Origin: a virus
Taxonomy: Duplodnaviria; Heunggongvirae; Uroviricota; Caudoviricetes
Virus record (IMG/VR): IMGVR_UViG_643348547_000003
Location: 1 to 28,525 of that record
DNA: 28,525 bases
Direction: 5' to 3' (one strand)
Shown here piece by piece: positions 1 to 27,229 of the stretch. A program made the position numbers and the translations under genes. The stretch's first letter is position 1. Each line of letters begins with the position of its first letter. The notes beneath the pieces are model-generated. The model made no database searches, had not been told where the DNA came from, and worked only from the letters and a program-made list of their open reading frames with translations.

Positions 1-891
1 TCAGGCTGCCAGATCATCGTTTCCGATGGAAGCATAATAAGCTTTTTCTGCTTCTGCCGGAGGAGTATGGCCCAGCCTTTCCAGCAATCGTCGATTGTTA
101 TACCAGTCCACCCACGTGAGTGTGGCCAGTTCCACTTCTGCACGGTTTTTCCAGCTCTTACGGTGTATTACCTCCGCTTTGTAAAGACCATTGATGCTCT
201 CCGCCATCGCGTTGTCATACGAGTCGCCTGTACTTCCTGTTGATGCCAGTAATCCGGCTTCCTTAAGCCGCTGTGTGTAGGCCAGCGATACATACTGAGA
301 ACCTTTATCACTGTGATGGACCGTGCCGGACGGTCGACGGGCCCATAACGCCTGCTCCAGTGCATCCAGCACGAATGTCGTTTCCATGGACGATGAGACC
401 CGCCACCCCACGATGTATCCGGCAAACACATCAATGATGAACGCCACATAGACGAAGCCCCGCCATGTGCTGACGTAAGTAAAATCAGCCACCCACAGCT
501 GGTCAGGTCGTTCTGCCACGAACTGACGGTTTACGCGGTCGCCTGCGGCAACGGCTTTCCGGCTGATGGTCGTACGGACCTTTTTACCCCGGAGAACACC
601 GGCAAGTCCCATAACCGCCATGAGACGTGCCACAGTGCATCTGGCCACTCTGATACCTTCCCGTAACAACTGACGCCAGACTTTACGCACACCGTATACC
701 TTGTGATTTTCATCGTATACGCGCTGTATCTCTTTCTTCAGCCAGTCATCGCGCTGCGCACGGGCACTGCGTTTATCCGGATGATGTCGCTGTTGCTGAC
801 AGTGGTAATACGTTGACGGGGCAATATGCAGTTCGCTGCATAGCGGTCCGACCCCGTACTGCTCACGCAGCTTATCCAGCAGTGGCATCAT
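1..891 (-). CDS. IS3-family transposase OrfB (DDE catalytic subunit)
   Basis: 296 aa with an integrase-core-like region (WVADFTYV...HSDKGSQY...[15 protein letters not shown]) typical of DDE transposases of the IS3 family. Overlaps orfA by 4 nt. Confidence 0.85.
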
Positions 892-1214
892 TTTTTCCAG
901 AGGCGGTCGAACTCCGCCTTCGCAAAATAAGCGGAAGCCTGGCGAAGGATATCGTTACTGCGGCGCAGTTCACGATTTTCACGTTCCAGCTCTTTCAGAC
1001 GCTGACGTTCAGCGGTGGTGAGCCCTCCATCACCGCCCCCGGTATCCCGCTCATGCTGGCGAACCCAGACACGCAGAGTCTCCGGCGTACAGCCAATCTT
1101 TGGAGCAATGGAACAAATTGTCGCCCATTGTGAGTCATATTCGCTCTGACTTTCCAGAACCATACGGACTGCCCGTTGACGGACTTCGGGGGAAAAACGA
1201 GTATTTTTAGTCAT
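888..1214 (-). CDS. IS3-family transposase OrfA (HTH DNA-binding subunit)
   Basis: 108 aa, [19 protein letters not shown]..., with a C-terminal leucine-zipper-like region ([26 protein letters not shown]) typical of IS3 OrfA. Ends in an A-run overlapping the orfB start, consistent with a programmed -1 frameshift. Confidence 0.85.
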
Positions 1215-1268
1215 CCTGTTTACCTCTTTCTCAGGAAGTTTAGTCTCCAGGATTCCCGGGGCGGTTCA

Positions 1269-2180
1269 GATGCACTAAATTACTGGTATGAAAATTACTG
1301 TAAGGTGCGTCGTAAAACTCATGCTGTAACGCTTGGCAGATTTCGAAAGCATATCTTTCCCTATATCGGTCATTTGCCCGTAAATGACACTCACCTATAT
1401 GAATGGCTGGACTGTTTTGACCGAATTAAACGTAATGCACCAGTTATGGCGGCGTATGTTTTTTCTGACACTAAATTAGCTCTTCGTTTTTGTCGGGTAC
1501 GCCAGTACGCGACGTGTGATGCTTTAAAGGATTTGCGCATGAGTGATGTGGGGCAGATTGCAGGTAAGCGGGATCGGGTTCTGGATGAAGCCGAACTCGG
1601 CCAGCTCTGGAAGGCAATTTTTGTCGAGCCTGATTTAAAACTAATGTCTGAATACACGCGAAAAATGTTTGTGCTTTGTACAGTATTTGGATGTCGAATG
1701 AGTGAAGCCCGATTATCAGAATGGAGCGAATGGGATCTCGAAAGTTGGGTTTGGACTGTACCAAAAGATCACTCAAAAACTGGTGTTGAAATCGTCAGAC
1801 CAGTACCTGAAATTCTACGACAGTGGGTAACGGATGTTCACGAAGAGACAAAACATACTGGTTATGTGCTGGGAAGTCTGCGAATTAGAGAAAGCGTAAG
1901 CAAGATTGGGGGGAAAATCGGTAAACGTTTGGGCCATGAAAAACAATGGTCACTACACGACCTTAGAAGAACGCTATCTACTCATCTAAGTGATCTCGGT
2001 GTTGAATTTTATGTAGTAGAACAACTGTTAGGCCATGCGCTACCTGGCGTGGCAGGTGTTTACAACCGGAGTAAGTTTATGGCTAAAAAACTGGATGCTC
2101 TGGAACTCTGGACTACATATCTCAATAGCATCGCAGGTGCTGATTCAAAAGTGACGATCCTCAAACAAAAGGTTGGTTAA
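1269..2180 (+). pseudogene. int: P4-type tyrosine integrase, 5' end interrupted by the IS insertion
   Basis: The reading frame continues directly from the IS end at 1269 (DALNYWYENY...). The C-terminal catalytic region has tyrosine-recombinase motifs (HDLRRT, LGHA, VYNRS). The N-terminal portion must lie beyond the IS, outside the window; the ORF-track start at 1176 lies inside IS sequence and is an artefact. Confidence 0.8.
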
Positions 2181-2181
2181 C

Positions 2182-2409
2182 ATGAAAAAAATGGCAATTG
2201 TTGATAAAAAGGGTCTGGAGTACATTCCTAACATTGACCGAATGATCCGTGAGAAAGAATGTCGGGAGCTAACCACTCTTGCGAACAGCACACGCTGGAA
2301 GCTGGAGAAGGAAGGAAAATTTCCTAAGCGGATCAAGATTGGTTCCACTGCTGTTGCATATCGTCTTTCAGAAGTGCAGGCATGGATTCGAGGTGAGTGG
2401 GTAGTTTAA
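2182..2409 (+). CDS. alpA: AlpA-family (Phage_AlpA, HTH) regulator or excisionase-like protein
   Basis: About 75 aa with an AlpA-like pattern (TTLANSTRWKLEKEGKFPKRIKIGSTAVAYRLSEVQAWI). Sits immediately downstream of int, as in P4-like and PICI elements. The track start at 2173 is TTG; the ATG at 2182 is preferred. Confidence 0.7.
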   Translation: MKKMAIVDKKGLEYIPNIDRMIREKECRELTTLANSTRWKLEKEGKFPKRIKIGSTAVAYRLSEVQAWIRGEWVV

Positions 2410-2434
2410 ATTATCTCAGAATAAAATATTATGA

Positions 2435-2470
2435 ATTACTGATTTGAGAATTTGTACTCAAATCAGTAAT
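2435..2470. terminator. Perfect 14-bp inverted repeat hairpin between convergent genes (putative bidirectional terminator)
   Basis: ATTACTGATTTGAG (2435..2448), 8-nt loop, CTCAAATCAGTAAT (2457..2470). Lies between the alpA stop (2409) and the stop of the minus-strand gene (2479). Confidence 0.45.
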
Positions 2471-2478
2471 AACATTCT

Positions 2479-3015
2479 TTATAAGAGATTAAATCCAAAT
2501 AAAGAGTAATCATATACCGGGGTGCATTGCATTCCACTGAATATGCTGATGTTTTTTTCTGTTTCTATCCTTTTTTCAATAAGTTGTTGTATATTTTTAC
2601 AGTACAATTTGTGTGTGATGTTATTATCGTAAGCCTGATATAGCAACGTCAATGTTGACGCTAGGAAACATACAGATAAAATTAAAATAATATATGCAGT
2701 TTTTTTATTTTTTGTCCATGATCTATTTGTTTGTGAAATATAAAGAATTCTGAGGTGGATAATGGTGAGAGACAATAGCAGGCCACTCAATAAAATAAGT
2801 ATTGGGTTTGCGTATTTTATTAATGGTTGAGAGCAAAAAACTATTATAGCTCCTGTGACTGCGTATGAGAAAAAGGAGTAATTAAACTTCTTACTCCTTC
2901 TCTCAAGTATTTTAATTTCATCTTGTGTGGGGGTTTTAGATGCCTCTAATATAAGTTTATTGAATGTTTCTGTTATCTTGTTTTTTGTGTTTGTGGCTAT
3001 TTTTTTTAGATTCAT
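2479..3015 (-). CDS. Hypothetical small membrane protein (about 3 predicted TM helices) in an AT-rich cargo segment
   Basis: 178-aa ORF in a strongly AT-rich stretch (about 2410..3330). Hydrophilic N-terminus followed by three hydrophobic segments (AVTGAIIVFCSQPLI, ILILLSGLLLSLTIIHL, AYIILILSVCFLASTLTLL). No family recognised. Confidence 0.6.
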   Translation of the reverse strand: MNLKKIATNTKNKITETFNKLILEASKTPTQDEIKILERRSKKFNYSFFSYAVTGAIIVFCSQPLIKYANPILILLSGLLLSLTIIHLRILYISQTNRSWTKNKKTAYIILILSVCFLASTLTLLYQAYDNNITHKLYCKNIQQLIEKRIETEKNISIFSGMQCTPVYDYSLFGFNLL

Positions 3016-3365
3016 AGCATTCTAACTCCCTTAACTTATTTATTACTTTCTCTTTATGATAAGAGAGGGGAATGACTTGGTAAAGTGATTTGTCATTAAT
3101 AATGATAATCCTTGCGATAAATATTTCTGCAAGTTATTTATCTGTTTGTTGCTATCTTGTTAAGCGTTGGGTGTGGTTTATATTTGGAGCGACTTTATTT
3201 AATCGTGATTTTATGGATTTATATTTATATCCTGTAAGATAAGCGCATGTTAGTTTAGGAGTAGTGTCAGATAAAATTATTCGGAGTAGAACTACCTTTT
3301 CTGTTTATTGCCAGTATTTACATAGCAATGCGCCGTAGTTACTCACATCACGGCGCTGATACTAA

Positions 3366-3668
3366 TTATTCAGATTCTTTGGCTTTACGCCGCTGGAGTT
3401 CTTCACGAGCGACGGCTACGAGTTGCCCGATTTCCTCCGCTGCCTTGATGCCGATTTGTTCGACCTTAGCTAAGGCATCCAGTGAAGACACGAGGGGATT
3501 TTCTCCGCTTCCTTCTGCCTGGCGGCGGGCGATCTCACCGCGCATGGCGGTTACTATGAATCCGGCGTTGCTTTCGCCGTCCAGTTTTACGGATTCCATG
3601 CCCTCCATAACATCGTGGGGAACCCTGATCGTTGTCATTTGCGATTTTGCATTTTTGTATACAGACAT
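3366..3668 (-). CDS. Putative ribbon-helix-helix (Arc/CopG-like) transcriptional regulator
   Basis: 100 aa. The N-terminal segment TTIRVPHDVMEGMESVKLDGESNAGFIVTAMRGEI fits a beta-strand plus two-helix RHH pattern. Transcribed divergently from the replication-side genes, with an operator-like repeat array in between. Confidence 0.55.
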   Translation of the reverse strand: MSVYKNAKSQMTTIRVPHDVMEGMESVKLDGESNAGFIVTAMRGEIARRQAEGSGENPLVSSLDALAKVEQIGIKAAEEIGQLVAVAREELQRRKAKESE

Positions 3669-3688
3669 AGTTAATCACCAATTTGTTA

Positions 3689-3790
3689 TGTGTATATCAC
3701 TATACACAAAAGTGAGATATAAAAACACTTGCAATGTATATCACCACAATATAATGTATATCTCACATTATGGTCGCTATGTATCTCACA
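3689..3790. promoter_or_regulatory. Divergent promoter/operator region with repeated TGTATATC(T)CAC motifs
   Basis: Palindrome TGTGTATA-TCAC-TATACACA at 3689..3708. Related motif copies at 3712..3721 (reverse orientation), 3734..3744, 3754..3767 and 3779..3790. Located between the divergent genes 3366..3668 (minus) and 3877..4242 (plus). Confidence 0.5.
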
Positions 3791-3876
3791 ATGATCGATT
3801 CATAAAAACGACGAAACCCGGCAGTGCGCGAACACTAACCGGGCTTCTAACCAAACCGTTAAACGAGGTAACTATT

Positions 3877-4242
3877 ATGGCTGGAACACAGCATACCCAA
3901 ACTCACCCTAAATTTATATACATCTTTCTGGCGCTACATCGCGATCGCATAGCAGATGGAGCAACTACGGTACATGTAGCCGCTGACACGCTGGTTGATG
4001 CCCGCAAGATGGTTAAGGAGATGGGCTATACTGCGGCTTTCTGGAAAGGGCGGGAAGAAAACACGCTGTTTATTCAGAAATGTGAAAACAATTTCCTCTG
4101 GCGTTTTATCGCCCTGAGTACGACACAACCGCGCGTGATTACCATCGAGGCCACCAGCGAACAGGAAGCCCGCCAGCAATCCCCAACTGGCTGCGTGATG
4201 ATATTCGCCGCCCGTATTCGTCAGGAGGTGTGCCATGAATGA
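3877..4242 (+). CDS. Hypothetical protein (first gene of the rightward operon)
   Basis: 121 aa, ATG at 3877 preceded by GAGG. This is the 3' portion of the long track ORF 3328..4242, whose upstream part is antisense to the RHH gene. No family assigned. Confidence 0.6.
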   Translation: MAGTQHTQTHPKFIYIFLALHRDRIADGATTVHVAADTLVDARKMVKEMGYTAAFWKGREENTLFIQKCENNFLWRFIALSTTQPRVITIEATSEQEARQQSPTGCVMIFAARIRQEVCHE

Positions 4243-4459
4243 TCTTTATTTTAAAGTGCTGACACATGCTGAAAACGCGCTCGTTTGTGGCAAAAATATG
4301 CGAGAAATCTTATCAACCTGGCTTGATGGGACAACAAATGCGGAACACGATGAACGGGATGCTAATTTAGCTGGAGCGTTAATTACGTTACTTGATCCTG
4401 TCATCAAAGAGCTGGATGAAGCTATAAAAATACACGACCAGAGCTATACCGAAGAATAA
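4235..4459 (+). CDS. Hypothetical protein
   Basis: 74 aa. Start overlaps the upstream stop; AGGAGG six nt upstream of the ATG. Confidence 0.5.
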   Translation: MNDLYFKVLTHAENALVCGKNMREILSTWLDGTTNAEHDERDANLAGALITLLDPVIKELDEAIKIHDQSYTEE

Positions 4460-4461
4460 AA

Positions 4462-4749
4462 ATGAAAAATAAATTTTCTGGCTTTATTGCCAGCGGTCAA
4501 GCTCATTCAAAAATCAGCCTTGGGGATATTTTCAAAGATAGCTATGGCTATCGGGTAAAGATTATTTCGGTTGATGATCGCCGTGTCTCTTATTTGCGTG
4601 ATGGTTATGATTTTGAATGTGTTATGCCGCGTCAGCAGTTCGAAAGAGATTTCATTCTGGTAAAAAATTGCAAGACAGATAATCAGAGGCGTGCCGCAGG
4701 CTATATCCGCAAAATTCGGGCAATGTTAGTTGCCGGAGGTAATAAATGA
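4462..4749 (+). CDS. Hypothetical small protein (possibly DUF4222-like; uncertain)
   Basis: 95 aa, tightly packed in the operon. The segment YRVKIISVDDRRVSYLRDGYDFECVMPRQQFERDFILV resembles what I recall of small conserved satellite/prophage proteins, but no search was run. Confidence 0.5.
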   Translation: MKNKFSGFIASGQAHSKISLGDIFKDSYGYRVKIISVDDRRVSYLRDGYDFECVMPRQQFERDFILVKNCKTDNQRRAAGYIRKIRAMLVAGGNK

Positions 4750-4928
4750 AACGTGCTCCGAACTTAAAATACCAACCGCGCGACAAAATGACAGAAGTCA
4801 TCATTTTTGCTGGCAGTGATGCCTAGAGCCATGCAAAAGAATGGAATGAATGGGCGGGTAAGCATATTGCAGCAGATGATACACCACCAGTAATTCTGGG
4901 TACGGAACAACTGGAAAACCTGGATGAT

Positions 4929-6566
4929 ATGCAAATTATCGATGAAGGCCGTCATTATGTGCGTGTTTATCGTGCCGGAAAGATTGCAGAGAAAAATCTG
5001 ACGAAGGTTGCGACATTACTTGCTATTGCAGGCGTAAAGGAAGCACGTTGTTACCGTAGCTTTGTTGATCGAGAGCCTGAAGACTGGACTCCGCGCCTTG
5101 TCGGCCTAAAAGCTGAAGCGGAGCATGGGGAAAGTCTGGTGATTGAACTGCCAGTGAAGAAGGCTGAGCGCAAAAATGACGAGCGTGCTTCATCTTTGGC
5201 GTTGAATCAGATGGGGGCCAGCCAGCGCGGTGAAGTTCTCCTTGCACATTACGGCGGCGAACTGGCAATCAATGCCGACTCTGACACCGTTCATCATTAC
5301 AACGGCGTTGTATGGGAGCCGGTTCAGGATAAAGAGTTACAGCGTGCTATGGCGCAGATTTTCATTGATGCGGAGATCAGCTATTCGCAGAACGCTATTA
5401 AATCGGCGGTAGATACCATGAAGTTAAGTTTGCCTGTAATGGGGAATACAGCCCGTAACCTGATTGGATTCAGTAACGGGGTATTTGATACCAGAACTGG
5501 TAATTTTCGGGAGCATAACAAAAACGACTGGTTGTTAATTGCCAGTGAATTACCTTTCAGCCCACCAGCAGAGGGGGAAACGCTGGCAACACATGCGCCG
5601 AATTTCTGGAAGTGGTTGCGCCGTTCGGTGGCTGAGAATGACCGCAAGGCAGATCGCGTACTGGCGGCATTATTCATGGTGCTGGCGAACCGGTACGACT
5701 GGCAGTTATTCATTGAGGTAACAGGGCCGGGGGGAAGTGGTAAAAGTGTGATGGCGGAGATTTGCACCATGCTGGCGGGTAAGGCTAATACAGTATCAGC
5801 AAGCATGAAGGCGCTGGAAGATGCAAGGGAACGTGCGTTAGTGGTTGGCTTTTCGCTGATTATCATGCCGGATATGACCCGCTACGCTGGTGATGGGGCA
5901 GGGATTAAGGCCATTACAGGCGGTGACAAGGTGGCAATTGACCCGAAACACAAAGCCCCCTATTCAACGCGTATTCCGGCAGTAGTGCTGGCGGTTAACA
6001 ATAACGCCATGTCATTCAGTGACCGCAGCGGGGGGATCTCACGTCGTCGGGTGATATTCAATTTTTCGGAAGTTGTACCGGAGAACGAACGCGATTCGAT
6101 GCTGGCGGAAAAAATAGAAGGTGAGCTGGCGGTAGTGATTCGTCATCTGCTTACAAGGTTTGCTGATCAGGACGAAGCCAGACGCCTGTTATATGAGCAG
6201 CAGAAATCTGAAGAAGCACTGGCGATAAAGCGAGAGGGGGATTCGCTGGTGGACTTCTGCGGTTATCTCATGGCATCGGTAATGTGTGATGGCCTGTTAG
6301 TGGGTAATGCTGAAATTGTGCCATTCAGCCCACGCAGGTATCTCTATCATGCCTATCTGGCTTATATGAGGGCACATGGGTTTGGTAAACCTGTAACACT
6401 GACGCGCTTCGGTAAAGATATGCCGGGGGCAATGGCGGAATATGGCAGGGAGTATATGAAACGGAAAACGAAGCACGGTTTGCGTTCAAACGTGACCCTG
6501 ACGGAGGAATCAGAAGACTGGATGCCATCATGTGTATCGGTCACTAATGACGATAGCAAAAATTAA
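4929..6566 (+). CDS. Replication protein, P4 alpha C-terminal / D5-like SF3 helicase-NTPase family
   Basis: 545 aa. Walker A motif VTGPGGSGKSV, Walker B-like LIIMPDMT, and a D5_N-like region (VVWEPVQDKELQRAMAQIFID). No obvious toprim primase domain. Immediately followed by an iteron array. Confidence 0.8.
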   Translation: MQIIDEGRHYVRVYRAGKIAEKNLTKVATLLAIAGVKEARCYRSFVDREPEDWTPRLVGLKAEAEHGESLVIELPVKKAERKNDERASSLALNQMGASQRGEVLLAHYGGELAINADSDTVHHYNGVVWEPVQDKELQRAMAQIFIDAEISYSQNAIKSAVDTMKLSLPVMGNTARNLIGFSNGVFDTRTGNFREHNKNDWLLIASELPFSPPAEGETLATHAPNFWKWLRRSVAENDRKADRVLAALFMVLANRYDWQLFIEVTGPGGSGKSVMAEICTMLAGKANTVSASMKALEDARERALVVGFSLIIMPDMTRYAGDGAGIKAITGGDKVAIDPKHKAPYSTRIPAVVLAVNNNAMSFSDRSGGISRRRVIFNFSEVVPENERDSMLAEKIEGELAVVIRHLLTRFADQDEARRLLYEQQKSEEALAIKREGDSLVDFCGYLMASVMCDGLLVGNAEIVPFSPRRYLYHAYLAYMRAHGFGKPVTLTRFGKDMPGAMAEYGREYMKRKTKHGLRSNVTLTEESEDWMPSCVSVTNDDSKN

Positions 6567-6580
6567 ACTTATGGAATAAC

Positions 6581-6801
6581 TGTTCACCACTGTTCACCCT
6601 GTCATAAATATCTTTTATATCAGTATATTATAGGGTGAACAGTTATTTATGAACTGTTCACCAAACTATTCACTGTTCACCTTTTTGATTGTTTATTGAG
6701 CTTCAAGGGTGAACAGTGGTGAACAGTTGGTGAATAGTTTTTGTGAAACTGTTCACCCATTAACATTATGAATTAAAAGAGAAAATATCAAAAGGTGAAC
6801 A
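6581..6801. repeat. Iteron array (putative satellite replication origin): about 9 copies of TGTTCACC / GGTGAACA
   Basis: TGTTCACC at 6581, 6591, 6655, 6674 and 6750. Reverse-orientation GGTGAACA at 6634, 6708, 6718 and 6794. This octamer is the iteron I recall from the P4 ori and crr, bound by the alpha protein. Confidence 0.7.
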
Positions 6802-6853
6802 GGTGAAGGGTTAAAACGCAAAAATTTTAATTTACTGCTGTGAGATAAAGCCT

Positions 6854-7099
6854 ATGACAGCGAAGCACACAAAAAAATCACAATCGCACGCCCTTGATTT
6901 GACGGAACACTGGTTAAGGGTGTCGATAAAAATCATCGACCGCAACGCCGGGGAAGGATACGCGAAAGCACATCCCGAACTGATTAGCGCATTCATGACA
7001 ACGGCGGCTGCAAACTTTGCCACTCTGACCGAACGGGAGATTGCTGAAGCGGAGGAAGTGACAACAATCAATATTAAGTCCGGAGAGCAGGCAGCATGA
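6854..7099 (+). CDS. Hypothetical protein
   Basis: 81 aa. Stop overlaps the start of the SSB-like gene (ATGA). Weak ribosome-binding site. Confidence 0.45.
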   Translation: MTAKHTKKSQSHALDLTEHWLRVSIKIIDRNAGEGYAKAHPELISAFMTTAAANFATLTEREIAEAEEVTTINIKSGEQAA

Positions 7100-7545
7100 C
7101 GGCGCAAATATCAGTTTACGGGCGGTTGGTGGACGACCCGCAGACAAAACAGACCAGCAAGGGCACCCCCATGACGCTGGCGCGTATGGCGGTATCACTG
7201 CCCTGCAGTCAGTCGGATGACGGTCAGGCGACGATGTGGTTATCTGTCCTGGCGTTTGGCAGACAAGCCGACGCGCTGGCAAAGCATCACAAAGGCGAAC
7301 TCCTGAGCGTGGCGGGTAATATGCAGGTGAGCCAGTGGACTGGACAGAACGGTGAAACGCGGCAGGGCTGGCAGGTTATCGCAGACAGCGTAATCAGTGC
7401 GCGAACGGTGCGACCGGGCGGCAAAAAAGGTCAACAGGGTCAGGCTACTGACGCACTGAACAGAGCAAAACAACAGGCAGATCAGCAAGGAAGCCATCCA
7501 CCAGTGGGAGATAATGAGCAATGGGGAGATGATATTCCGTTTTAA
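7096..7545 (+). CDS. Single-stranded DNA-binding protein (SSB-like)
   Basis: 149 aa. N-terminal OB-fold-like region, a Gly/Gln-rich linker and a C-terminal acidic tail ending DDIPF, the hallmark of the bacterial SSB C-terminus. Confidence 0.7.
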   Translation: MTAQISVYGRLVDDPQTKQTSKGTPMTLARMAVSLPCSQSDDGQATMWLSVLAFGRQADALAKHHKGELLSVAGNMQVSQWTGQNGETRQGWQVIADSVISARTVRPGGKKGQQGQATDALNRAKQQADQQGSHPPVGDNEQWGDDIPF

Positions 7546-7563
7546 ATATTGCCAATAAAAAAG

Positions 7564-7588
7564 GCCGGAAAAAAATAAATTTTCCGGC
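7564..7588 (+). terminator. Stem-loop downstream of the SSB-like gene (weak terminator candidate)
   Basis: GCCGGAAAA (7564..7572), 7-nt loop, TTTTCCGGC (7580..7588). No clear 3' U-tract. Confidence 0.35.
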
Positions 7589-7762
7589 ATGCTACATAAA
7601 TCCCGACCAAAGGGAGTGAAGATATTAACACTAATTATCCGCGCTGGAGTTGTTATCCCAAAACTTTATACAACATTGCACTCGGTTGCATGTATTCGCA
7701 TGACAAATATCGGTGATAGCATATATCCACAATTATTTTTAATGAATGCAAAGAGGATGCGT

Positions 7763-8803
7763 ATGGTTGATTTATATTCGCCTACCCAGCTTGTACAGGT
7801 GGTTAATGCTGTAGATGTACAAAAACAACTAAATGCGTTGTTTACCAGTTTGTTTTTTACTCGCTCGGTAATGTTTGAATCGCGCGATATTATTCTTGAT
7901 ACAATCGACGATCCAAATATCCCAATTGCAGCGTTTTGTTCTCCTATGGTAGGTAGTAAAGTTTCACGTGACGAAGGGTACGAATCAAAAACAATTCGTC
8001 CAGGCTATATGAAGCCGAAAAGCAGCATTGATCCAAATAAGTTAGCTGTGCGCCCTGCTGGTGTATCACCTGAGCAATACAATGCTTTTGGAGCGCGTAA
8101 TATTAAAGTTAAACAGGCGATTGTAAATCAGGCTAAAGCTATTCGTGCACGTATTGAATGGTTTGCCGTTCAGGCAATCACAACGGGGAAAAATATCATT
8201 GAGGGCGATGGTATTGAACGTTATGAGCTGGACTGGAATATAAAACCACAAAATATCATCACTCAGTCTGGCGGTACTGAGTGGTCAGGTAAGGATAAAG
8301 AAACTTTTGATCCAAATGATGATATTGAGAGCTACGCAGAATTTAGTGAGGGCGTCACTAATATCATCATTATGGGCGGTAATGTATGGAAGAAATACCG
8401 TTCATTCAGAGCGATAAAAGAGGCTCTGGATACCCGTCGTGGTTCTAATTCCGAACTGGAAACGGCCCTTAAAGACCTTGGTGATTCGGTGAGTTTTAAA
8501 GGGTATATGGGCGATGTTGCGATTGTTGTATACAGCGGGCGTTATACCGACGAGGACGGAACTGAAAAACATTTCCTTGATCCTGATTTGATGGTGCTTG
8601 GCAATACGGCTCTTCAGGGGATTGTCGCCTATGGCGGTATTCAGGATCCGGAGCTAATCCGAATGGGGCTGACTAAAGCCGAACTTGCACCGAAAAACTA
8701 TATTGTGCCTGGTGATCCGGCTATTGAATATGTGCAGACACATTCAGCACCACAGCCAATACCGGCCCGCATCAATCGTTTTGTTACCGTTCGCATTGGC
8801 TAA
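7763..8803 (+). CDS. Major capsid protein, phage lambda gpE family (divergent homolog)
   Basis: 346 aa from the ATG at 7763 (AAGAGGA five nt upstream). Alignable along its length to lambda gpE, with shared motifs NIITQSGGTEWS, DTRRGSNSELETA and GDVAIVVYSG. The 5' extension of the track ORF (7589..7762) is probably untranslated. Confidence 0.85.
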   Translation: MVDLYSPTQLVQVVNAVDVQKQLNALFTSLFFTRSVMFESRDIILDTIDDPNIPIAAFCSPMVGSKVSRDEGYESKTIRPGYMKPKSSIDPNKLAVRPAGVSPEQYNAFGARNIKVKQAIVNQAKAIRARIEWFAVQAITTGKNIIEGDGIERYELDWNIKPQNIITQSGGTEWSGKDKETFDPNDDIESYAEFSEGVTNIIIMGGNVWKKYRSFRAIKEALDTRRGSNSELETALKDLGDSVSFKGYMGDVAIVVYSGRYTDEDGTEKHFLDPDLMVLGNTALQGIVAYGGIQDPELIRMGLTKAELAPKNYIVPGDPAIEYVQTHSAPQPIPARINRFVTVRIG

Positions 8804-8812
8804 GGGGGAGCA

Positions 8813-9154
8813 ATGGCTACTCATTACACTGAACTCATGGCTGGCACTGAAGCACTGGTGACTACGCTGGGGATATTTTCAGCTAATAAAGGGGTAATTC
8901 CTGCATTTACGCCACTGATGCAGGAAGATGCAACAGGTGCACTGGTGGTATGGGATGGTTCGAGCGTAGGTAAAGCGGTTTATGTTTCCGCTGTACAAAT
9001 CGACACCGCGAAAAAAACACAGGCTCAGGTCTATAAGACAGGTGTCTTAAATGTTGATGCTCTGAACTGGCCTGAGTCTGTAAAAGAACTGTCAGTAAAG
9101 ATTGCAGCGTTTGTTGGCTCAGGTATTTCTGTTCAGCCGCTGGCTCGTGTGTAA
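8813..9154 (+). CDS. Head decoration protein, lambda gpD-like
   Basis: 113 aa. TPLMQEDATGALVVWDGSSVG and YKTGVLNVDALNWPE...AAFVGSGISV parallel lambda gpD. Lies downstream of the E-like gene, the reverse of the lambda D then E order. Confidence 0.75.
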   Translation: MATHYTELMAGTEALVTTLGIFSANKGVIPAFTPLMQEDATGALVVWDGSSVGKAVYVSAVQIDTAKKTQAQVYKTGVLNVDALNWPESVKELSVKIAAFVGSGISVQPLARV

Positions 9155-9165
9155 AGGGGGATACA

Positions 9166-9549
9166 ATGCAGAATGATTACAATGACCTTAAGCCACTTGC
9201 CGAAATGATGTACCCGAATCCAGCTGTAGAGGAATTAAAAGCTATCGCTGACAAAATGTGTTTAAGCGAGCGCCTTGTTGATATGAATCAGGTGATGGAA
9301 ATTACAACCCTGAGTCGGCGTACACTGCTAAACCTTGAGGCTAGTGGAGAGTTCCCGGAGCGTGTGCAGGTTACGGAAGGGCGTAAGGCCTGGTATTTAA
9401 GTGAAGTGATCGACTGGATAAATAATATTCCTCGCGCTTCTGAATATTGCCGCGTACCTGTCCCAAAAAAGCCAGATGCGGCGCTATGCCTCAAGATTGA
9501 GCGTGTACGCCGCAATGCACGGGATGGTCGCTATAAGCTGATTGGTTGA
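9166..9549 (+). CDS. AlpA-family HTH regulator with an N-terminal extension
   Basis: 127 aa. Core MEITTLSRRTLLNLEASGEFPERVQVTEGRKAWYLSEVIDWI matches the AlpA/HTH_17 pattern. Second AlpA-like gene in the island. Confidence 0.65.
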   Translation: MQNDYNDLKPLAEMMYPNPAVEELKAIADKMCLSERLVDMNQVMEITTLSRRTLLNLEASGEFPERVQVTEGRKAWYLSEVIDWINNIPRASEYCRVPVPKKPDAALCLKIERVRRNARDGRYKLIG

Positions 9550-9557
9550 TGAAATTA

Positions 9558-9581
9558 GGGCCCGCTCTGGCTGGCGGGTCC
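9558..9581 (+). terminator. GC-rich stem-loop after the second AlpA-like gene
   Basis: GGGCCCGC, 8-nt loop, GCGGGTCC, followed by TTTCC. Imperfect stem and short U-tract. Confidence 0.3.
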
Positions 9582-9713
9582 TTTCCGGCGATCTGACAGG
9601 CTACGGGGCGTCAGGCGCGCAGTTTTTTGCTATTTGTGAAAATTTTCCTGTTTAAGGCGTTTCCGTTCTTCTTCGCCGTAACTTAATGTTTTTATTAAAA
9701 ACACCCCCTAAAA

Positions 9714-9770
9714 AGAAAGGAAACGACAGGTGCTAAAAACAGGCTTTTTGGCCTCTGTCGTTTCCTTTCT
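9714..9770. other. Long perfect 16-bp inverted repeat (structured RNA or bidirectional terminator) in a roughly 600-bp non-coding spacer
   Basis: AGAAAGGAAACGACAG (9714..9729), 25-nt loop with an inner mini-hairpin, CTGTCGTTTCCTTTCT (9755..9770). Lies between convergent genes. Confidence 0.4.
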
Positions 9771-10147
9771 CTGGTTTTGTTGCCATCCGTCGCGGTCTAT
9801 CACCAGAAAAAATCTTATCCCTGAGTTGAATCAGGCCCTATTCAGAAGCGGTCAATAACGCGCCGCTAGCTTCACTTCATAGTTATGGCCTACTTCTGCG
9901 CCATTGCAATTGCTTTATGCGCCTTGATGGTGGAATATAGAGCAAGCAGTTTGCGAATAACAAAGTTTCATATGTTTTTTGCTGTGTGGCTAGACAACTT
10001 TACAGCAGAGTTTTGTGTCAGTTCTTTATGTGTGCAAGCAAGCTTGAGGGGGAATTACTTCTGGCTGCATCTTTGCTTAAGAACAGCAATAATTTAATCA
10101 TAAGGAAATGTATATAAGCCTGATTAAATTTCAGGCTTATTGAAATG

Positions 10148-11290
10148 TTAACTCCTTATTAGAGAGTAAATTCCATCCTCTTTAAGGAAGTCTATTACTT
10201 CAAAGAATGAGATAAAGAATTCCCAAGAACCAAAAGCATATGCATGAATTTCGTAAGGTGCAAAATGGAATCTAAATCCATCACTATTTATTGTGAACGA
10301 GTCTAAGTTACTATCCATGATACCCGTTGCAAACGTACTAATGTCGTCCTCACTTGGTTTTTCACCAGTTTTCTCCCAAAATTCACGAGCTGATTCAGAG
10401 ATTATTTTTTGTTTTATCTTATTAATCGCTTCTTGCTCTTTCCCTTCGGTAAATACATCCCATAAACTAAATTTGTATGCGTAGTCATCCTTGGTTATTA
10501 CGAAATTACTAGTTTCAAAATGACTGTTAGGGTGTGCTGCTCCCGCACCATACCAATGTACGGAATGAAGGATGCTCATAACATTTTCGTTACAGTATGA
10601 GATGTTATAACTTTCATTATAGGAACTAGTGTAAGTGTGTTTATATTCTTCATCCCAATATGGTGTTCCTGGCCATAGTGATGTGCGTTCAGAAAAAATA
10701 TGTAAAGCCGCTTTTCCTGAAAAGTAATCACTAATGAGTTTTGCTGATTTCGGTAATGTATGGCTTTCAATTCTTGGATATGCTATTTCAATTTCATGCC
10801 CTGGGATCTTGTTATATTCTTCCTTGAAAACCTCGCTGCTAAAGTTAAATGGCCCATAAGTGATACCTTGAGATATTTCAAGTTTTTGTTGCGATGCTGC
10901 TAATCTTAAAGATCTAGATAAAATGTCCCAACCATCATTTCTCTTAAAATCAATGAATTGGAGCTTGCTTGATATGTAGGCGGGTACTTCGCAATCATCA
11001 ATAAGTAATGGTATCACGAACACATCATCTGGTTTGTAATACTTTAGTTTATCAATGGCGTCATTTATTTCGCGGCGAATATAACCATTTTTCTGAGTGC
11101 TCACTTTGCTAAGGATAAGGATTATCAAGTTTGAATTAGCGAAGTTTTTTTGGATTTCATAATCCCAGTTTACGCCAGCGGGTATATCTTTTACATCCAT
11201 CCAAGGGGAATATCCTCCACTTTTTAGCCTTTCATAGATTTCTTCAGTTATCGTTTCATCTTCTTTTGCATGAGCAAGAAAAATTTTCAT
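10148..11290 (-). CDS. TIR-domain protein with a C-terminal DUF3298/RsiV-like domain (candidate antiphage effector)
   Basis: 380 aa in an AT-rich segment. The N-terminal 140 aa or so carry TIR-like hallmarks (KIFLAHAKEDE...W.D...I..G......I.ILSKVS...NGYIRREI). The C-terminal region contains HWYGAGAAHPNSHFETSNF...LWDVF, resembling the Y-x-GGAHG signature of DUF3298. SD-like AAGGA upstream of the start. No partner gene adjacent. Confidence 0.75.
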   Translation of the reverse strand: MKIFLAHAKEDETITEEIYERLKSGGYSPWMDVKDIPAGVNWDYEIQKNFANSNLIILILSKVSTQKNGYIRREINDAIDKLKYYKPDDVFVIPLLIDDCEVPAYISSKLQFIDFKRNDGWDILSRSLRLAASQQKLEISQGITYGPFNFSSEVFKEEYNKIPGHEIEIAYPRIESHTLPKSAKLISDYFSGKAALHIFSERTSLWPGTPYWDEEYKHTYTSSYNESYNISYCNENVMSILHSVHWYGAGAAHPNSHFETSNFVITKDDYAYKFSLWDVFTEGKEQEAINKIKQKIISESAREFWEKTGEKPSEDDISTFATGIMDSNLDSFTINSDGFRFHFAPYEIHAYAFGSWEFFISFFEVIDFLKEDGIYSLIRS

Positions 11291-11499
11291 TGAATATTCC
11301 TTTATAATTTAACTAATTAAGTGAAGGAGGCTTTACTTGGCTGTGTTAGAAAAAATTCGGTTTGTTTTTTGTACGATGCCAAGAAGGCTTTTCCCTAACC
11401 ATGTATTGCAGCATGTATTGCTACGTAATTCTGCACCCTCTCATTTATAAAATAAATCTCTGTTAAATCAAGTATCTTTTTTCTATTTGACTCATGTAA

Positions 11500-12288
11500 C
11501 CCAAGCATGAGGTGAATCCGCAGATGACCCTGCGTCGCCTGCCGGATGAAGATCCGCAGAATCTGGCGGACCCGGCTTACCGCCGCCGTCGCATCATCAT
11601 GCAGAACATGCGTGACGAAGAGCTGGCCATTGCTCAGGTCGAAGAGATGCAGGCCGTTTCTGCCGTGCTTAAGGGCAAATACACCATGACCGGTGAAGCC
11701 TTCGATCCGGTTGAGGTGGATATGGGCCGCAGTGCGGCGAATAACATCACGCAGTCCGGCGGCACGGAGTGGAGCAAGCGTGACAAGTCCACGTATGACC
11801 CGACCGACGATATCGAAGCCTACGCGCTGAACGCCAGCGGTGTGGTGAATATCATCGTGTTTGATCCGAAAGGCTGGGCGCTGTTCCGTTCCTTCAAAGC
11901 CGTCAAGGAGAAGCTGGATACCCGTCGTGGCTCTAATTCCGAGCTGGAGACAGCGGTGAAAGACCTGGGTAAAGCGGTGTCCTATAAGGGGATGTATGGC
12001 GATGTTGCCATCGTCGTGTATTCCGGACAGTACGTGGAAAACGGCGTCAAAAAGAACTTCCTGCCGGACAACACGATGGTGCTGGGGAACACTCAGGCAC
12101 GCGGTCTGCGTACCTATGGCTGTATTCAGGATGCGGACGCACAGCGCGAAGGCATTAACGCCTCTGCCCGTTACCCGAAAAACTGGGTGACCACCGGCGA
12201 TCCGGCGCGTGAGTTCACCATGATTCAGTCAGCACCGCTGATGCTGCTGGCTGACCCTGATGAGTTCGTGTCCGTACAACTGGCGTAA
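11500..12288 (+). pseudogene. E: Lambda major capsid protein E, 5'-truncated fragment (about C-terminal 260 aa)
   Basis: Translation PKHEVNPQMTLRRLPDEDPQNLADPAYRRRRIIMQNMRDEE... to ...DPDEFVSVQLA matches my recollection of lambda gpE from about residue 80 to the end. An in-frame TAA sits immediately upstream (11497..11499) and the upstream sequence is unrelated. Confidence 0.85.
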
Positions 12289-24829: not shown

Positions 24830-27229
24830 ATGGCAGCAGTAAAAATCTCAGGTGTGCTGAAAGATGGTGCGGGAAAACCAATACAGAACTGCACTATTCA
24901 ACTGAAGGCAAAGCGTAACAGCACCACGGTACTGGTGAACACGGTGGCCTCTGAAAATCCGGATGAAGCCGGGCGTTACAGCATGGATGTTGAGTATGGC
25001 CAGTACAGCGTTATCCTGCTTGTTGAAGGTTTTCCGCCTTCACATGCCGGAACCATTACCGTCTATGAAGGTTCCAGACCAGGTACGCTGAATGATTTTC
25101 TCGGTGCCATGACGGAAGATGATGTCATGCCGGAGGCATTGCGTCGTTTTGAGGAAATGGTGGAAGAAGCGGCACGCAACGCCGAAGCCGCCTCTCAGAG
25201 CGCAGCGGCGGCAAAGAAATCCGAAACTGCAGCGGCATCATCGAAGAACGCGGCGAAAACCTCAGAAACGAATGCAGCTAATAGTGCACAGGCGGCAGCG
25301 ACCTCACAGACTGCATCAGAAAACTCCGCGACAGCAGCCAAAAAATCAGAAACCAACGCGAAAAATAGCGAGACAGCCGCAAAGACGAGCGAAACCAACG
25401 CAAAGTCCAGCCAGACGGCAGCGAAGACCAGCGAAACGAATGCCAAAGCCAGTGAAACTGCGGCAAAAAACAGCCAGGTTGCAGCAGCCCAAAGCGAGAG
25501 CGCGGCAGCCGGTTCTGCGACTTCAGCAACTGGATCAGCAACTGCTGCGGCTAACAGCCAGAAAGCTGCGAAGACGAGTGAAACTAACGCAAAGTCCAGC
25601 CAGACGGCAGCGAAGACCAGCGAAACGAATGCCAAAGCCAGTGAAACTGCGGCGAAAAACAGTCAGGATGCAGCAGCCCAAAGCGAGAGTGCCGCAGCTG
25701 GTTCTGCAAGTGCGGCGGCTTCTTCTGCCTCTGCATCAGCCAACAGTCAAAAAGCTGCAAAAACCAGTGAAACCAACGCAAAGGCGAGCGAGACTGCGGC
25801 GGCTAACTCAGCGAAAGCATCGGCAGCAAGCCAGACGGCTGCAAAAGCAAGTGAAGACGCAGCCAGAGAGTATGCAAGCCAGGCTGCGGAGCCGTATAAA
25901 CAAGTTTTGCAGCCGCTTCCCGATGTGTGGATACCGTTTAACGATTCACTGGATATGATTACGGGCTTTTCGCCGTCATATAAAAAGATTGTTATTGGTG
26001 ATGATGAAATAACGATGCCTGGCGATAAGGTTGTAAAGTTTAAACGCGCATCAACTGCCACATATATCAATAAATCAGGCGTATTTAGTGTTGCTAAAAT
26101 TGATGAGCCACGATTTGAAAAAGAAGGTTTATTGATTGAAGGACAGCGCACTAACTATTTTGTTAAATCCAATATCCCCGCTGAATGGACGAGTACCAGC
26201 AATATCGATAAAACTAATAATGGTGTTGATGAATTTGGTTTTTCATATGCCAAAATGCGAACAAAAGATAATATGACAGGACAATCATCTGCACTTAGTC
26301 TGCATACATGCAGTGCATCCCGGGGGATTGATGTTAGTGGCGATAATAAGTATTGCACTGTTTCATGCAGGGTTAAAGCTCCTGATGGTCTTCGTTGTCG
26401 TTTGCGTTTTGAAAAATACGATGGGTCGGTTTATACATTTTTAGGAGATGCTTATTTAACTTTCGGAACTCTGATAATAGAAAAAACTGGCGGAGCAGCC
26501 AATAGAATAGCAGCTACTGCAACTAAAGATCCGGTTACAGGGTGGATTTTCTATGAGGCAACTATAGAAGCTGTTGAAGGTGAAACCTTAATTGGCGCAA
26601 TGATTCAGTATGCGCCGAAAAAAGGTGGTGTAACTGAAGCGGGAGATTATATTTACCTTGCAACACCACAATTTGAAAACGGCGGATGTGCTTCATCTTT
26701 TGTTATTACGACAACTGTACCCGCAACCCGCTCCAGTGATATGGTGACGATCCCAACTGAAAATAATATCTATAATAGACCGCTTACGTGCCTGGTCGAG
26801 GTTAATAGAAATTGGGGCGATATTCCTCCTAATGTAGCACCGCGTATTTTTGATTTTTCTGGTGTGCCACCTATTGAGTCAATTACATACGCTTTTAACA
26901 CAACTGAGAAATATTACGGTCAGCTTTATATGCAAACTTATAAAGCGTCGACAAGTACTTACGTTTCTAGTGTGTTTGCTGGTCGAACTGATGTTCGAAA
27001 ATTCATTGGTGGTTTTAATATTTATTCTGATGGTACTAAACGAGTAGTTTCTAACGGTGAGGCTACTAAAACCATGAAAACGGAGTGGACGGGCGTAAAA
27101 ACACGGACCTTTATTCGAATTGGAGGTCAAGCCACATCGGGAACTCGTCATCTATTCGGCCATTTGAGAAATCTTCGTCTCTGGCATAAAGAATTAACTG
27201 ATGCGCAAATGGGGGAGAGTATTAAATGA
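24830..27229 (+). CDS. stf: Side tail fibre protein (Stf-like): lambda-type N-terminus, Ala/Ser/Thr-rich repeat shaft, non-lambda lectin-like C-terminal domain
   Basis: N-terminus AVKISGVLKDGAGKPIQNCTIQLKAKRNSTTV...HAGTITVYEGS parallels lambda Stf. ATG at 24830 with GGAG upstream (the track start at 24824 is GTG). The C-terminal 400 aa or so are AT-rich and end in a Laminin_G_3-like motif (HLFGHLRNLRLWHKELTDAQM). Confidence 0.85.
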   Translation: MAAVKISGVLKDGAGKPIQNCTIQLKAKRNSTTVLVNTVASENPDEAGRYSMDVEYGQYSVILLVEGFPPSHAGTITVYEGSRPGTLNDFLGAMTEDDVMPEALRRFEEMVEEAARNAEAASQSAAAAKKSETAAASSKNAAKTSETNAANSAQAAATSQTASENSATAAKKSETNAKNSETAAKTSETNAKSSQTAAKTSETNAKASETAAKNSQVAAAQSESAAAGSATSATGSATAAANSQKAAKTSETNAKSSQTAAKTSETNAKASETAAKNSQDAAAQSESAAAGSASAAASSASASANSQKAAKTSETNAKASETAAANSAKASAASQTAAKASEDAAREYASQAAEPYKQVLQPLPDVWIPFNDSLDMITGFSPSYKKIVIGDDEITMPGDKVVKFKRASTATYINKSGVFSVAKIDEPRFEKEGLLIEGQRTNYFVKSNIPAEWTSTSNIDKTNNGVDEFGFSYAKMRTKDNMTGQSSALSLHTCSASRGIDVSGDNKYCTVSCRVKAPDGLRCRLRFEKYDGSVYTFLGDAYLTFGTLIIEKTGGAANRIAATATKDPVTGWIFYEATIEAVEGETLIGAMIQYAPKKGGVTEAGDYIYLATPQFENGGCASSFVITTTVPATRSSDMVTIPTENNIYNRPLTCLVEVNRNWGDIPPNVAPRIFDFSGVPPIESITYAFNTTEKYYGQLYMQTYKASTSTYVSSVFAGRTDVRKFIGGFNIYSDGTKRVVSNGEATKTMKTEWTGVKTRTFIRIGGQATSGTRHLFGHLRNLRLWHKELTDAQMGESIK
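25379..25709 (+). repeat. Tandem duplication (about 189-bp unit, 2 near-identical copies) inside stf, within a wider KTSETNAK-type repetitive shaft
   Basis: Protein segment AAKTSETNAKSSQTAAKTSETNAKASETAAKNSQ(V/D)AAAQSESAAAGSA occurs twice, 63 aa apart. Shorter SETNAK-containing repeats extend across about 25211..25860. Confidence 0.6.

Follow-up and report, generated by a model that had tools for sequence, protein, structure and literature searches.

Organization of the prophage-satellite locus

The stretch of DNA analyzed here, hereafter the window (28,525 nucleotides), belongs to the chromosome of Escherichia coli IAI39 (CU928164.2, from about 532,898). An exact-protein look-up with the 545-aa reading frame of the satellite primase led to this strain and to the sequence left of the window. 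The first base of the window corresponds to position 5073 of the recovered IAI39 locus, and the two show 0 mismatches over the 16,566 bases compared. The IAI39 chromosome is finished and consists of a single contig of 5,132,068 bp, of which we read this locus and its left flank only. For comparison, we searched a collection of 5426 complete E. coli genomes, IAI39 itself not included, together with the GTDB species representatives. AR_0013 aligns to the whole window (27 kb) at 99.66% identity, and CE10 carries the same prophage at argU with an uninterrupted capsid gene, which represents the empty attB. The locus is a composite of two elements: a lambdoid prophage at argU and, within the major capsid gene of that prophage, a helper-embedded PICI satellite of the “11capE” type. 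Its left edge is formed by an insertion sequence (IS) that is followed, without any intervening base, by the remnant of the satellite integrase gene.

The satellite island spans positions 1269-11507, inside the lambda-E-like major capsid gene of the lambdoid prophage. Comparison of attB (CE10), attL (locus L002), and attR (window) yields an att core of 10 bp, AACCCAAGCA, which corresponds to capsid codons 79-82. This core forms attR at 11498..11507 on the plus strand, and to its right the 3' part of the prophage's lambda-E-like capsid gene continues in frame to 12288. In IAI39, the interval from argU to the IS contains neither attL nor the 5' part of the capsid gene, leaving one att site at the locus in place of two.

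The island displays the gene order of PICIs, with a captured capsid gene and cos. The integrase remnant is followed by an intact alpA gene encoding an AlpA-family regulator/excisionase (2182..2409, plus strand; Pfam Phage_AlpA, 2.8e-15). Also intact are the genes for SSB, a second AlpA-like protein, a lambda-E-like major capsid protein (7589..8803, plus strand; Pfam Phage_cap_E, 8e-41), and a lambda-D-like decoration protein (8813-9154, plus strand; HDPD, 4e-15), as well as a cos-like region (9575..9779, plus strand) that is 88% identical to the sequence immediately preceding the small terminase gene of the CE10 prophage. The satellite capsid reading frame is open over 404 aa in the window, while in relatives the gene is called at 346 aa (start at about 7763). 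By eye, the cos-like region resembles lambda cos, and similar stretches, unannotated, are present in about 3186 E. coli genomes.

The satellite primase/helicase gene (4746..6566, plus strand) encodes D5_N, DUF5906, and Pox_D5 domains and a P4-type primase C-terminal domain. It is interrupted by an amber codon at 4824-4826 (W27, TGG to TAG), and the longest open remainder comprises 545 aa (4929-6566). We observe the same amber in IS-free relatives, including AR_0013, and the 545-aa reading frame occurs in 222 blocks of the assembly collection, so the amber allele is widespread. An internal start at 4929 may be sufficient for this gene. An earlier reading of the window from its sequence alone (the sequence-only reading) had supposed that the IS leaves the replication, capsid, and cargo genes intact, which is correct for the capsid and the TIR cargo but not for replication, given the primase amber at codon 27.

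The variable slot beside attR is occupied by a gene for a 380-aa TIR-DUF3298 protein (10148..11290, minus strand), a candidate defense cargo that is also intact. Only its TIR domain (residues 2 to 120) matches the Aga TIR and ThsB models; no full-length match was obtained among the PADLOC or NCBIfam defense models, and no paper linking DUF3298, TIR, and phage was found. The TIR-DUF3298 gene is thereby a candidate for a new single-gene defense cargo, and the segment containing it is present in 15 of the approximately 175 genomes carrying the satellite int. Elsewhere in the window, in the region of the tail fiber gene, positions 25364-25801 hold a unit of roughly 250 bp in a tandem-like offset repeat (84% identity), visible off the diagonal in the comparison with AR_0013.

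An IS629-family element at the left edge

The complete IS measures 1310 bp (-41..1268 in window coordinates), of which 1268 bp lie in the window (1..1268, minus strand) and the remaining 42 bp of the right end, including the IRR, just left of it. Elements of the IS3 family are about 1.2-1.5 kb long and terminate in imperfect inverted repeats of the form 5'-TG...CA-3'. In the IAI39 element, both ends begin with TGAACCGCCCCGGG..., giving the TG...CA termini; the IRL (1244..1268, minus strand), which reads TGAACCGCCCCGGGAATCCTGGAGA on that strand, is identical at 23 of 25 positions to the IRR (TGAACCGCCCCGGGTTTCC..., left of the window), and the terminal inverted repeat ...CCCGGGGCGGTTCA stops at window position 1268. 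An intact annotated copy in CE10 agrees with the element at 99.9% identity; copies annotated as IS629 family by PGAP are 99.9-100% identical to it, and an IS1203 copy is 96% identical.

The two reading frames of the element follow the IS3-family arrangement, with an HTH-containing orfA overlapping a DDE/rve-containing orfB and a programmed -1 frameshift. The product of orfB (1..891, minus strand; 296 aa) is the DDE/rve part of the transposase (Pfam rve, 8e-28; HTH_21) and scores 314.6 bits against NCBIfam NF033516 (IS3 transposase; cutoff, 160), and orfA (888..1214, minus strand; 108 aa) contains HTH_Tnp_1. They overlap at a run of six A residues, where the -1 frameshift takes place; the structure that stimulates frameshifting in the IS3 family, an ALIL pseudoknot, spans 817..933 on the minus strand (Rfam RF01497, 120.2 bits; gathering score, 50).

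A copy of an IS3-family element is flanked by a direct target duplication of 3 to 4 bp. Around the IAI39 element we find no target-site duplication; the flanks are AGC and GAT (...ACAAGC-IS-GATGCAC...). We attribute this to the copy bounding a deletion, as discussed below, and the missing duplication is thus no argument against membership in the IS3 family.

The satellite integrase is truncated at codon 109

To the right of the IS, IS-free int alleles align to the window at 100% identity, and their first aligned base falls exactly on position 1269, where codon 109 of the 411-aa Int begins. The 303 residues encoded by 1269-2180 (plus strand) are all identical to Int residues 109 to 411, followed by the stop codon. 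The boundary between IS and int, which has the sequence GGATTCCCGGGGCGGTTCAGATGCACTAAATTACTGG, is exact and not a chance match. In the full-length allele, the Arm-DNA-binding domain (PF13356, Arm-DNA-bind_3) covers residues 7 to 93, the core-binding domain (PF14659/PF22022) residues 106 to 198, and the catalytic domain (PF00589) residues 213 to 377. The remnant retains the core-binding and catalytic domains; the Arm-DNA-binding domain, start codon, and promoter are missing, leaving two of the three domains of this P4/HE-PICI-type tyrosine recombinase, the SAM-like core-binding domain being one of them. The sequence-only reading had placed the end of an IS3-family element at 1268 and the resumption of the integrase frame at 1269, and the comparison with IS-free alleles bears out both positions. 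Its assignment of 1176..1268 to the IS likewise holds, in view of the terminal repeat and the near-identical CE10 copy, as does its expectation that the island contains no uninterrupted int: among the called genes there is no further integrase in the island or in the remaining window.

A chimeric reading frame of 334 aa (1176..2180, plus strand) opens at a TTG within the IS, antisense to orfA, and runs through the integrase remnant, its first 31 codons being antisense IS sequence. A scan of the plus strand from 900 to 1500 found no promoter-like site; lying without such a site upstream, the frame is probably not a gene. We also considered an outward-directed IS promoter driving the int remnant, which we reject on the grounds of the same scan and of the adjoining IS end, which is the IRL and faces away.

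The missing half of int is not across the IS

Leftward from the IS, we observe the 3' remnant of the prophage integrase gene intD on the minus strand, then tRNA-Arg(TCT) argU, and then fimZ. The intD remnant (positions 4755-5030 of the recovered IAI39 locus, left of the window; minus strand) comprises the last 87 of 388 codons of this tyrosine recombinase and matches positions 118-171 of the Pfam Phage_integrase model, its C terminus. The IS therefore adjoins the intD remnant with its right end and codon 109 of the satellite int with its left end. At the left junction, intD and the IS end share a 3-bp TGA microhomology, an overlap expected by chance in about 1 in 64 cases that proves little, and at the right junction there is none. 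The IS is consequently bordered by two N-terminally truncated integrases, the intD remnant (minus strand) and the satellite int remnant (plus strand). Annotation of an “integrase” on either side of the IS could mislead readers into joining the two.

These flanks decide the fate of the simplest explanation, which is that of the sequence-only reading: an IS that inserted into int and split it, so that the 5' half and a duplication of 3 to 4 bp would follow directly across the element. The clean boundary between IS end and int at a codon border fits such an event, and IS629/IS1203 does insert in this way into phage integrases. As a control, an IS1203 copy (96% identical) in the int of an O111:H8 prophage has both int halves beside it and a 3-bp duplication (CTT/CTT). 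Across the IAI39 element, however, lie argU and the opposite-strand C-terminal remnant of intD; the int 5' half is absent from the left flank, and the bordering triplets AGC and GAT do not match. Examination of the sequence left of the window, which the sequence-only reading had proposed as the check, thus found neither the missing half nor the duplication. We consider a simple insertion almost certainly wrong as an account of the present structure, for which it is refuted, though it may describe the first historical step. The satellite int has been truncated by a deletion and not split by the IS.

A deletion of about 17 to 20 kb bounded by the IS

The extent of the loss is evident from AR_0013, which is 100% identical to IAI39 left of the junction and 99.97% identical across 15.3 kb right of it. 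Between the two IAI39 breakpoints, AR_0013 contains 19,698 bp, or about 17.4 kb when an intron is subtracted. This segment begins with an intron-interrupted IS629-family copy, a recombinase fragment, and the genes from ybcL through the Q antiterminator; continues with the lysis cassette, iss, the small and large terminases, portal, S49 protease, and decoration genes; and ends with the first 245 nt of the lambda-E-like capsid gene, attL, and the start of int. None of this remains between the two breakpoints in IAI39. Specifically, the int 5' 324 nt (codons 1 to 108) and the int promoter are missing from the IAI39 locus, as are the prophage nin/Q genes relative to close relatives. With the deletion, IAI39 has also lost the iss gene (increased serum survival) that the prophages of CE10 and AR_0013 carry.

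What is observed, then, are the sequences of both junctions, the retention of attR, and the absence of the intervening segment and of a target duplication. The reading that best accounts for them, and which we hold with high confidence, is that the IS marks the edge of a deletion of approximately 17 to 20 kb that removed Int codons 1 to 108, attL, and half of the host prophage. The preserved order and orientation of the flanks suggest loss of the int 5' segment and not its relocation.

A relocation would have the insertion followed by an IS-mediated translocation, with the int 5' half, attL, and the left half of the prophage now residing elsewhere in IAI39 by way of another IS629. At least 40 matches to the IS sequence in relatives make recombination between IS copies plausible, and the IAI39 sequence that we examined is this locus and not the whole chromosome. 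The retained flanks nevertheless stand in their ancestral order and orientation, for which recombination on the same chromosome predicts a deletion and not an inversion, and relocation would in addition require reintegration of the excised circle. We judge it very unlikely.

How the junction may have arisen

The history of the deletion can be approached through an older IS629 copy. In CE10 and AR_0013, such a copy lies 9 bp deeper in intD, in the orientation opposite to that of the IAI39 element. In AR_0013 (locus 44803-48382) it is interrupted by a group II intron (ltrA). In CE10 it is intact, yet no target duplication borders it (flanks CCA and TTG); the CE10 copy, too, therefore bounds an older deletion, here of the prophage early region.

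Since the IAI39 element is inverted relative to this older copy, at least two events are needed. Along the likeliest path, an IS629 copy would have transposed into int in the present orientation, and its other end would then have been joined to an intD site 9 bp from the older copy, that is, by an adjacent deletion anchored at the IS end. The mirror-image order of these two steps is also possible. The TGA present at the left junction mildly favors insertion into int first and the leftward deletion second. Alternatively, two IS629 copies in direct orientation could have undergone homologous recombination with loss of the segment between them. We also asked whether one recombination, involving the older IS629 beside intD and a copy within int, would suffice, and rejected this: the two copies would be inverted with respect to each other, and the exchange would yield an inversion in which each IS end keeps its flank, unlike the junction in IAI39.

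Distribution and age of the junction

The IS-int junction was found neither in the 5426 complete E. coli genomes, among which IAI39 is not included, nor in the GTDB species representatives, and in a gene-position index the 1176-2180 reading frame occurs on one contig only. This frame is a unique marker of the IAI39 junction. The satellite int is present in 175 complete E. coli genomes, with a whole int next to attL in 174 of these. The deletion is recent and specific to the strain IAI39, since the int remnant has not diverged from intact alleles (100% identity).

A junction seen in one assembly only could also point to an assembly artifact, in which two directly oriented IS629 copies were collapsed and the intervening DNA was dropped, and multicopy repeats of 1.3 kb are classic sites of misassembly. 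The IAI39 sequence is finished and in a single contig, however, and a dropped unique segment of 17 kb would leave reads unplaced. Moreover, the left junction is novel, located 9 bp short of the CE10/AR_0013 site and formed by the opposite IS end, and a collapse across the known copies does not produce it. We regard an artifact as extremely unlikely.

Consequences for the satellite and its helper

With attL lost, a single att site remains, and no Int, not even one provided in trans, can excise the satellite. The immobilization of the island put forward in the sequence-only reading is thus upheld, and made more certain by a lesion larger than proposed, which includes the arm domain of Int, attL, and most helper genes. 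Missing from the resident helper are the Q antiterminator, the lysis cassette, and the majority of the head genes, and with them the functions of induction, lysis, and head formation. For helper-embedded PICIs, the locus represents an “abandoned” satellite that, because attL is gone, cannot be reactivated by a new helper. Automated mappers would overlook or miscall such stranded satellites.

Could the truncation itself be functional, such that the 1176-2180 frame or an internal start gives rise to an arm-less Int that has taken on a new role and the satellite is kept as a fixed antiphage locus? In favor of this, the remnant retains intact core-binding and catalytic domains that do not differ from those of active alleles, and the satellite preserves its TIR gene and its capsid, decoration, and cos regions. 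Against this, no promoter-like site was found and the start codon is located within the IS, in antisense orientation; the junction is known from a single strain with zero divergence, which gives no sign of selection; and a single att site leaves Int without a recombination partner. Such a role seems highly doubtful to us. The related proposal, that the stranded satellite has been domesticated as a fixed decoy or defense against lambda-like phages (through its capsid, decoration, cos, and TIR-DUF3298 components), with the IS-bounded deletion as the fixing step, is also most improbable. The suggestion in the sequence-only reading that the IS offers a route to fixing defense cargo in the chromosome remains speculation, with a junction confined to one strain, no sign of selection, and a candidate cargo carried by a small minority of the satellites.

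Overall, the event is ordinary IS-driven decay of a known satellite-prophage composite. It has little importance past annotation, where it provides a clean example of a multicopy IS629 eroding a nested prophage-satellite composite and cautions that a gene fragment at an IS end need not have its other half across the IS.

Comparison with known systems

The IAI39 element agrees with IS629/IS1203, of the IS3 group in E. coli and Shigella, in its 1310-bp length, TG...CA ends, 25-bp imperfect repeats, frameshifted orfA/orfB, and ALIL pseudoknot, and differs from them in lacking the 3-bp target duplication. A same-group element interrupting a tyrosine recombinase gene is also seen in E. coli O111:H8 SF4-1 (NZ_CP077442.1), where IS1203 lies in a prophage integrase; in that strain, however, the int halves both flank the IS and CTT is duplicated, a structure absent in IAI39. 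That IS629 inactivates genes and gives rise to genomic deletions is documented (PMC9943667). The IS629-associated deletions of EHEC, described in the literature on the IS-excision enhancer (PMC9943667), resemble the IAI39 deletion in that one endpoint coincides precisely with the end of an IS629 copy and a short microhomology is seen at the opposite junction, the difference being that for IAI39 the mechanism is only one that we infer.

With regard to the satellite, elements with their own capsid and decoration genes inside a prophage capsid gene are an already published type, the helper-embedded PICIs (PMC10111431). Tommasini, Mageeney & Williams (2023, PMC10111431) describe the “11capE” (Phage_cap_E_80) site group as integrating into a lambda-E-like capsid gene with a 10-bp identity block. 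These satellites excise after the composite replicates, and their excision and replication on helper induction have been shown in NRG857c (PMC10111431). Both unmapped cases in which transposases lie near int and truncated helpers that harbor “abandoned” satellites are already noted in this study, whose supplementary tables contain no entry for IAI39 (PMC10111431). The IAI39 satellite has in common with 11capE (PMC10111431) the order int-alpA-variable zone-pri-late zone and a capsid gene of its own. It differs from 11capE in that its helper is located at argU and not at icd, in that the satellite itself is devoid of attL and the Int N terminus, and in that the helper has been deprived of its left half.
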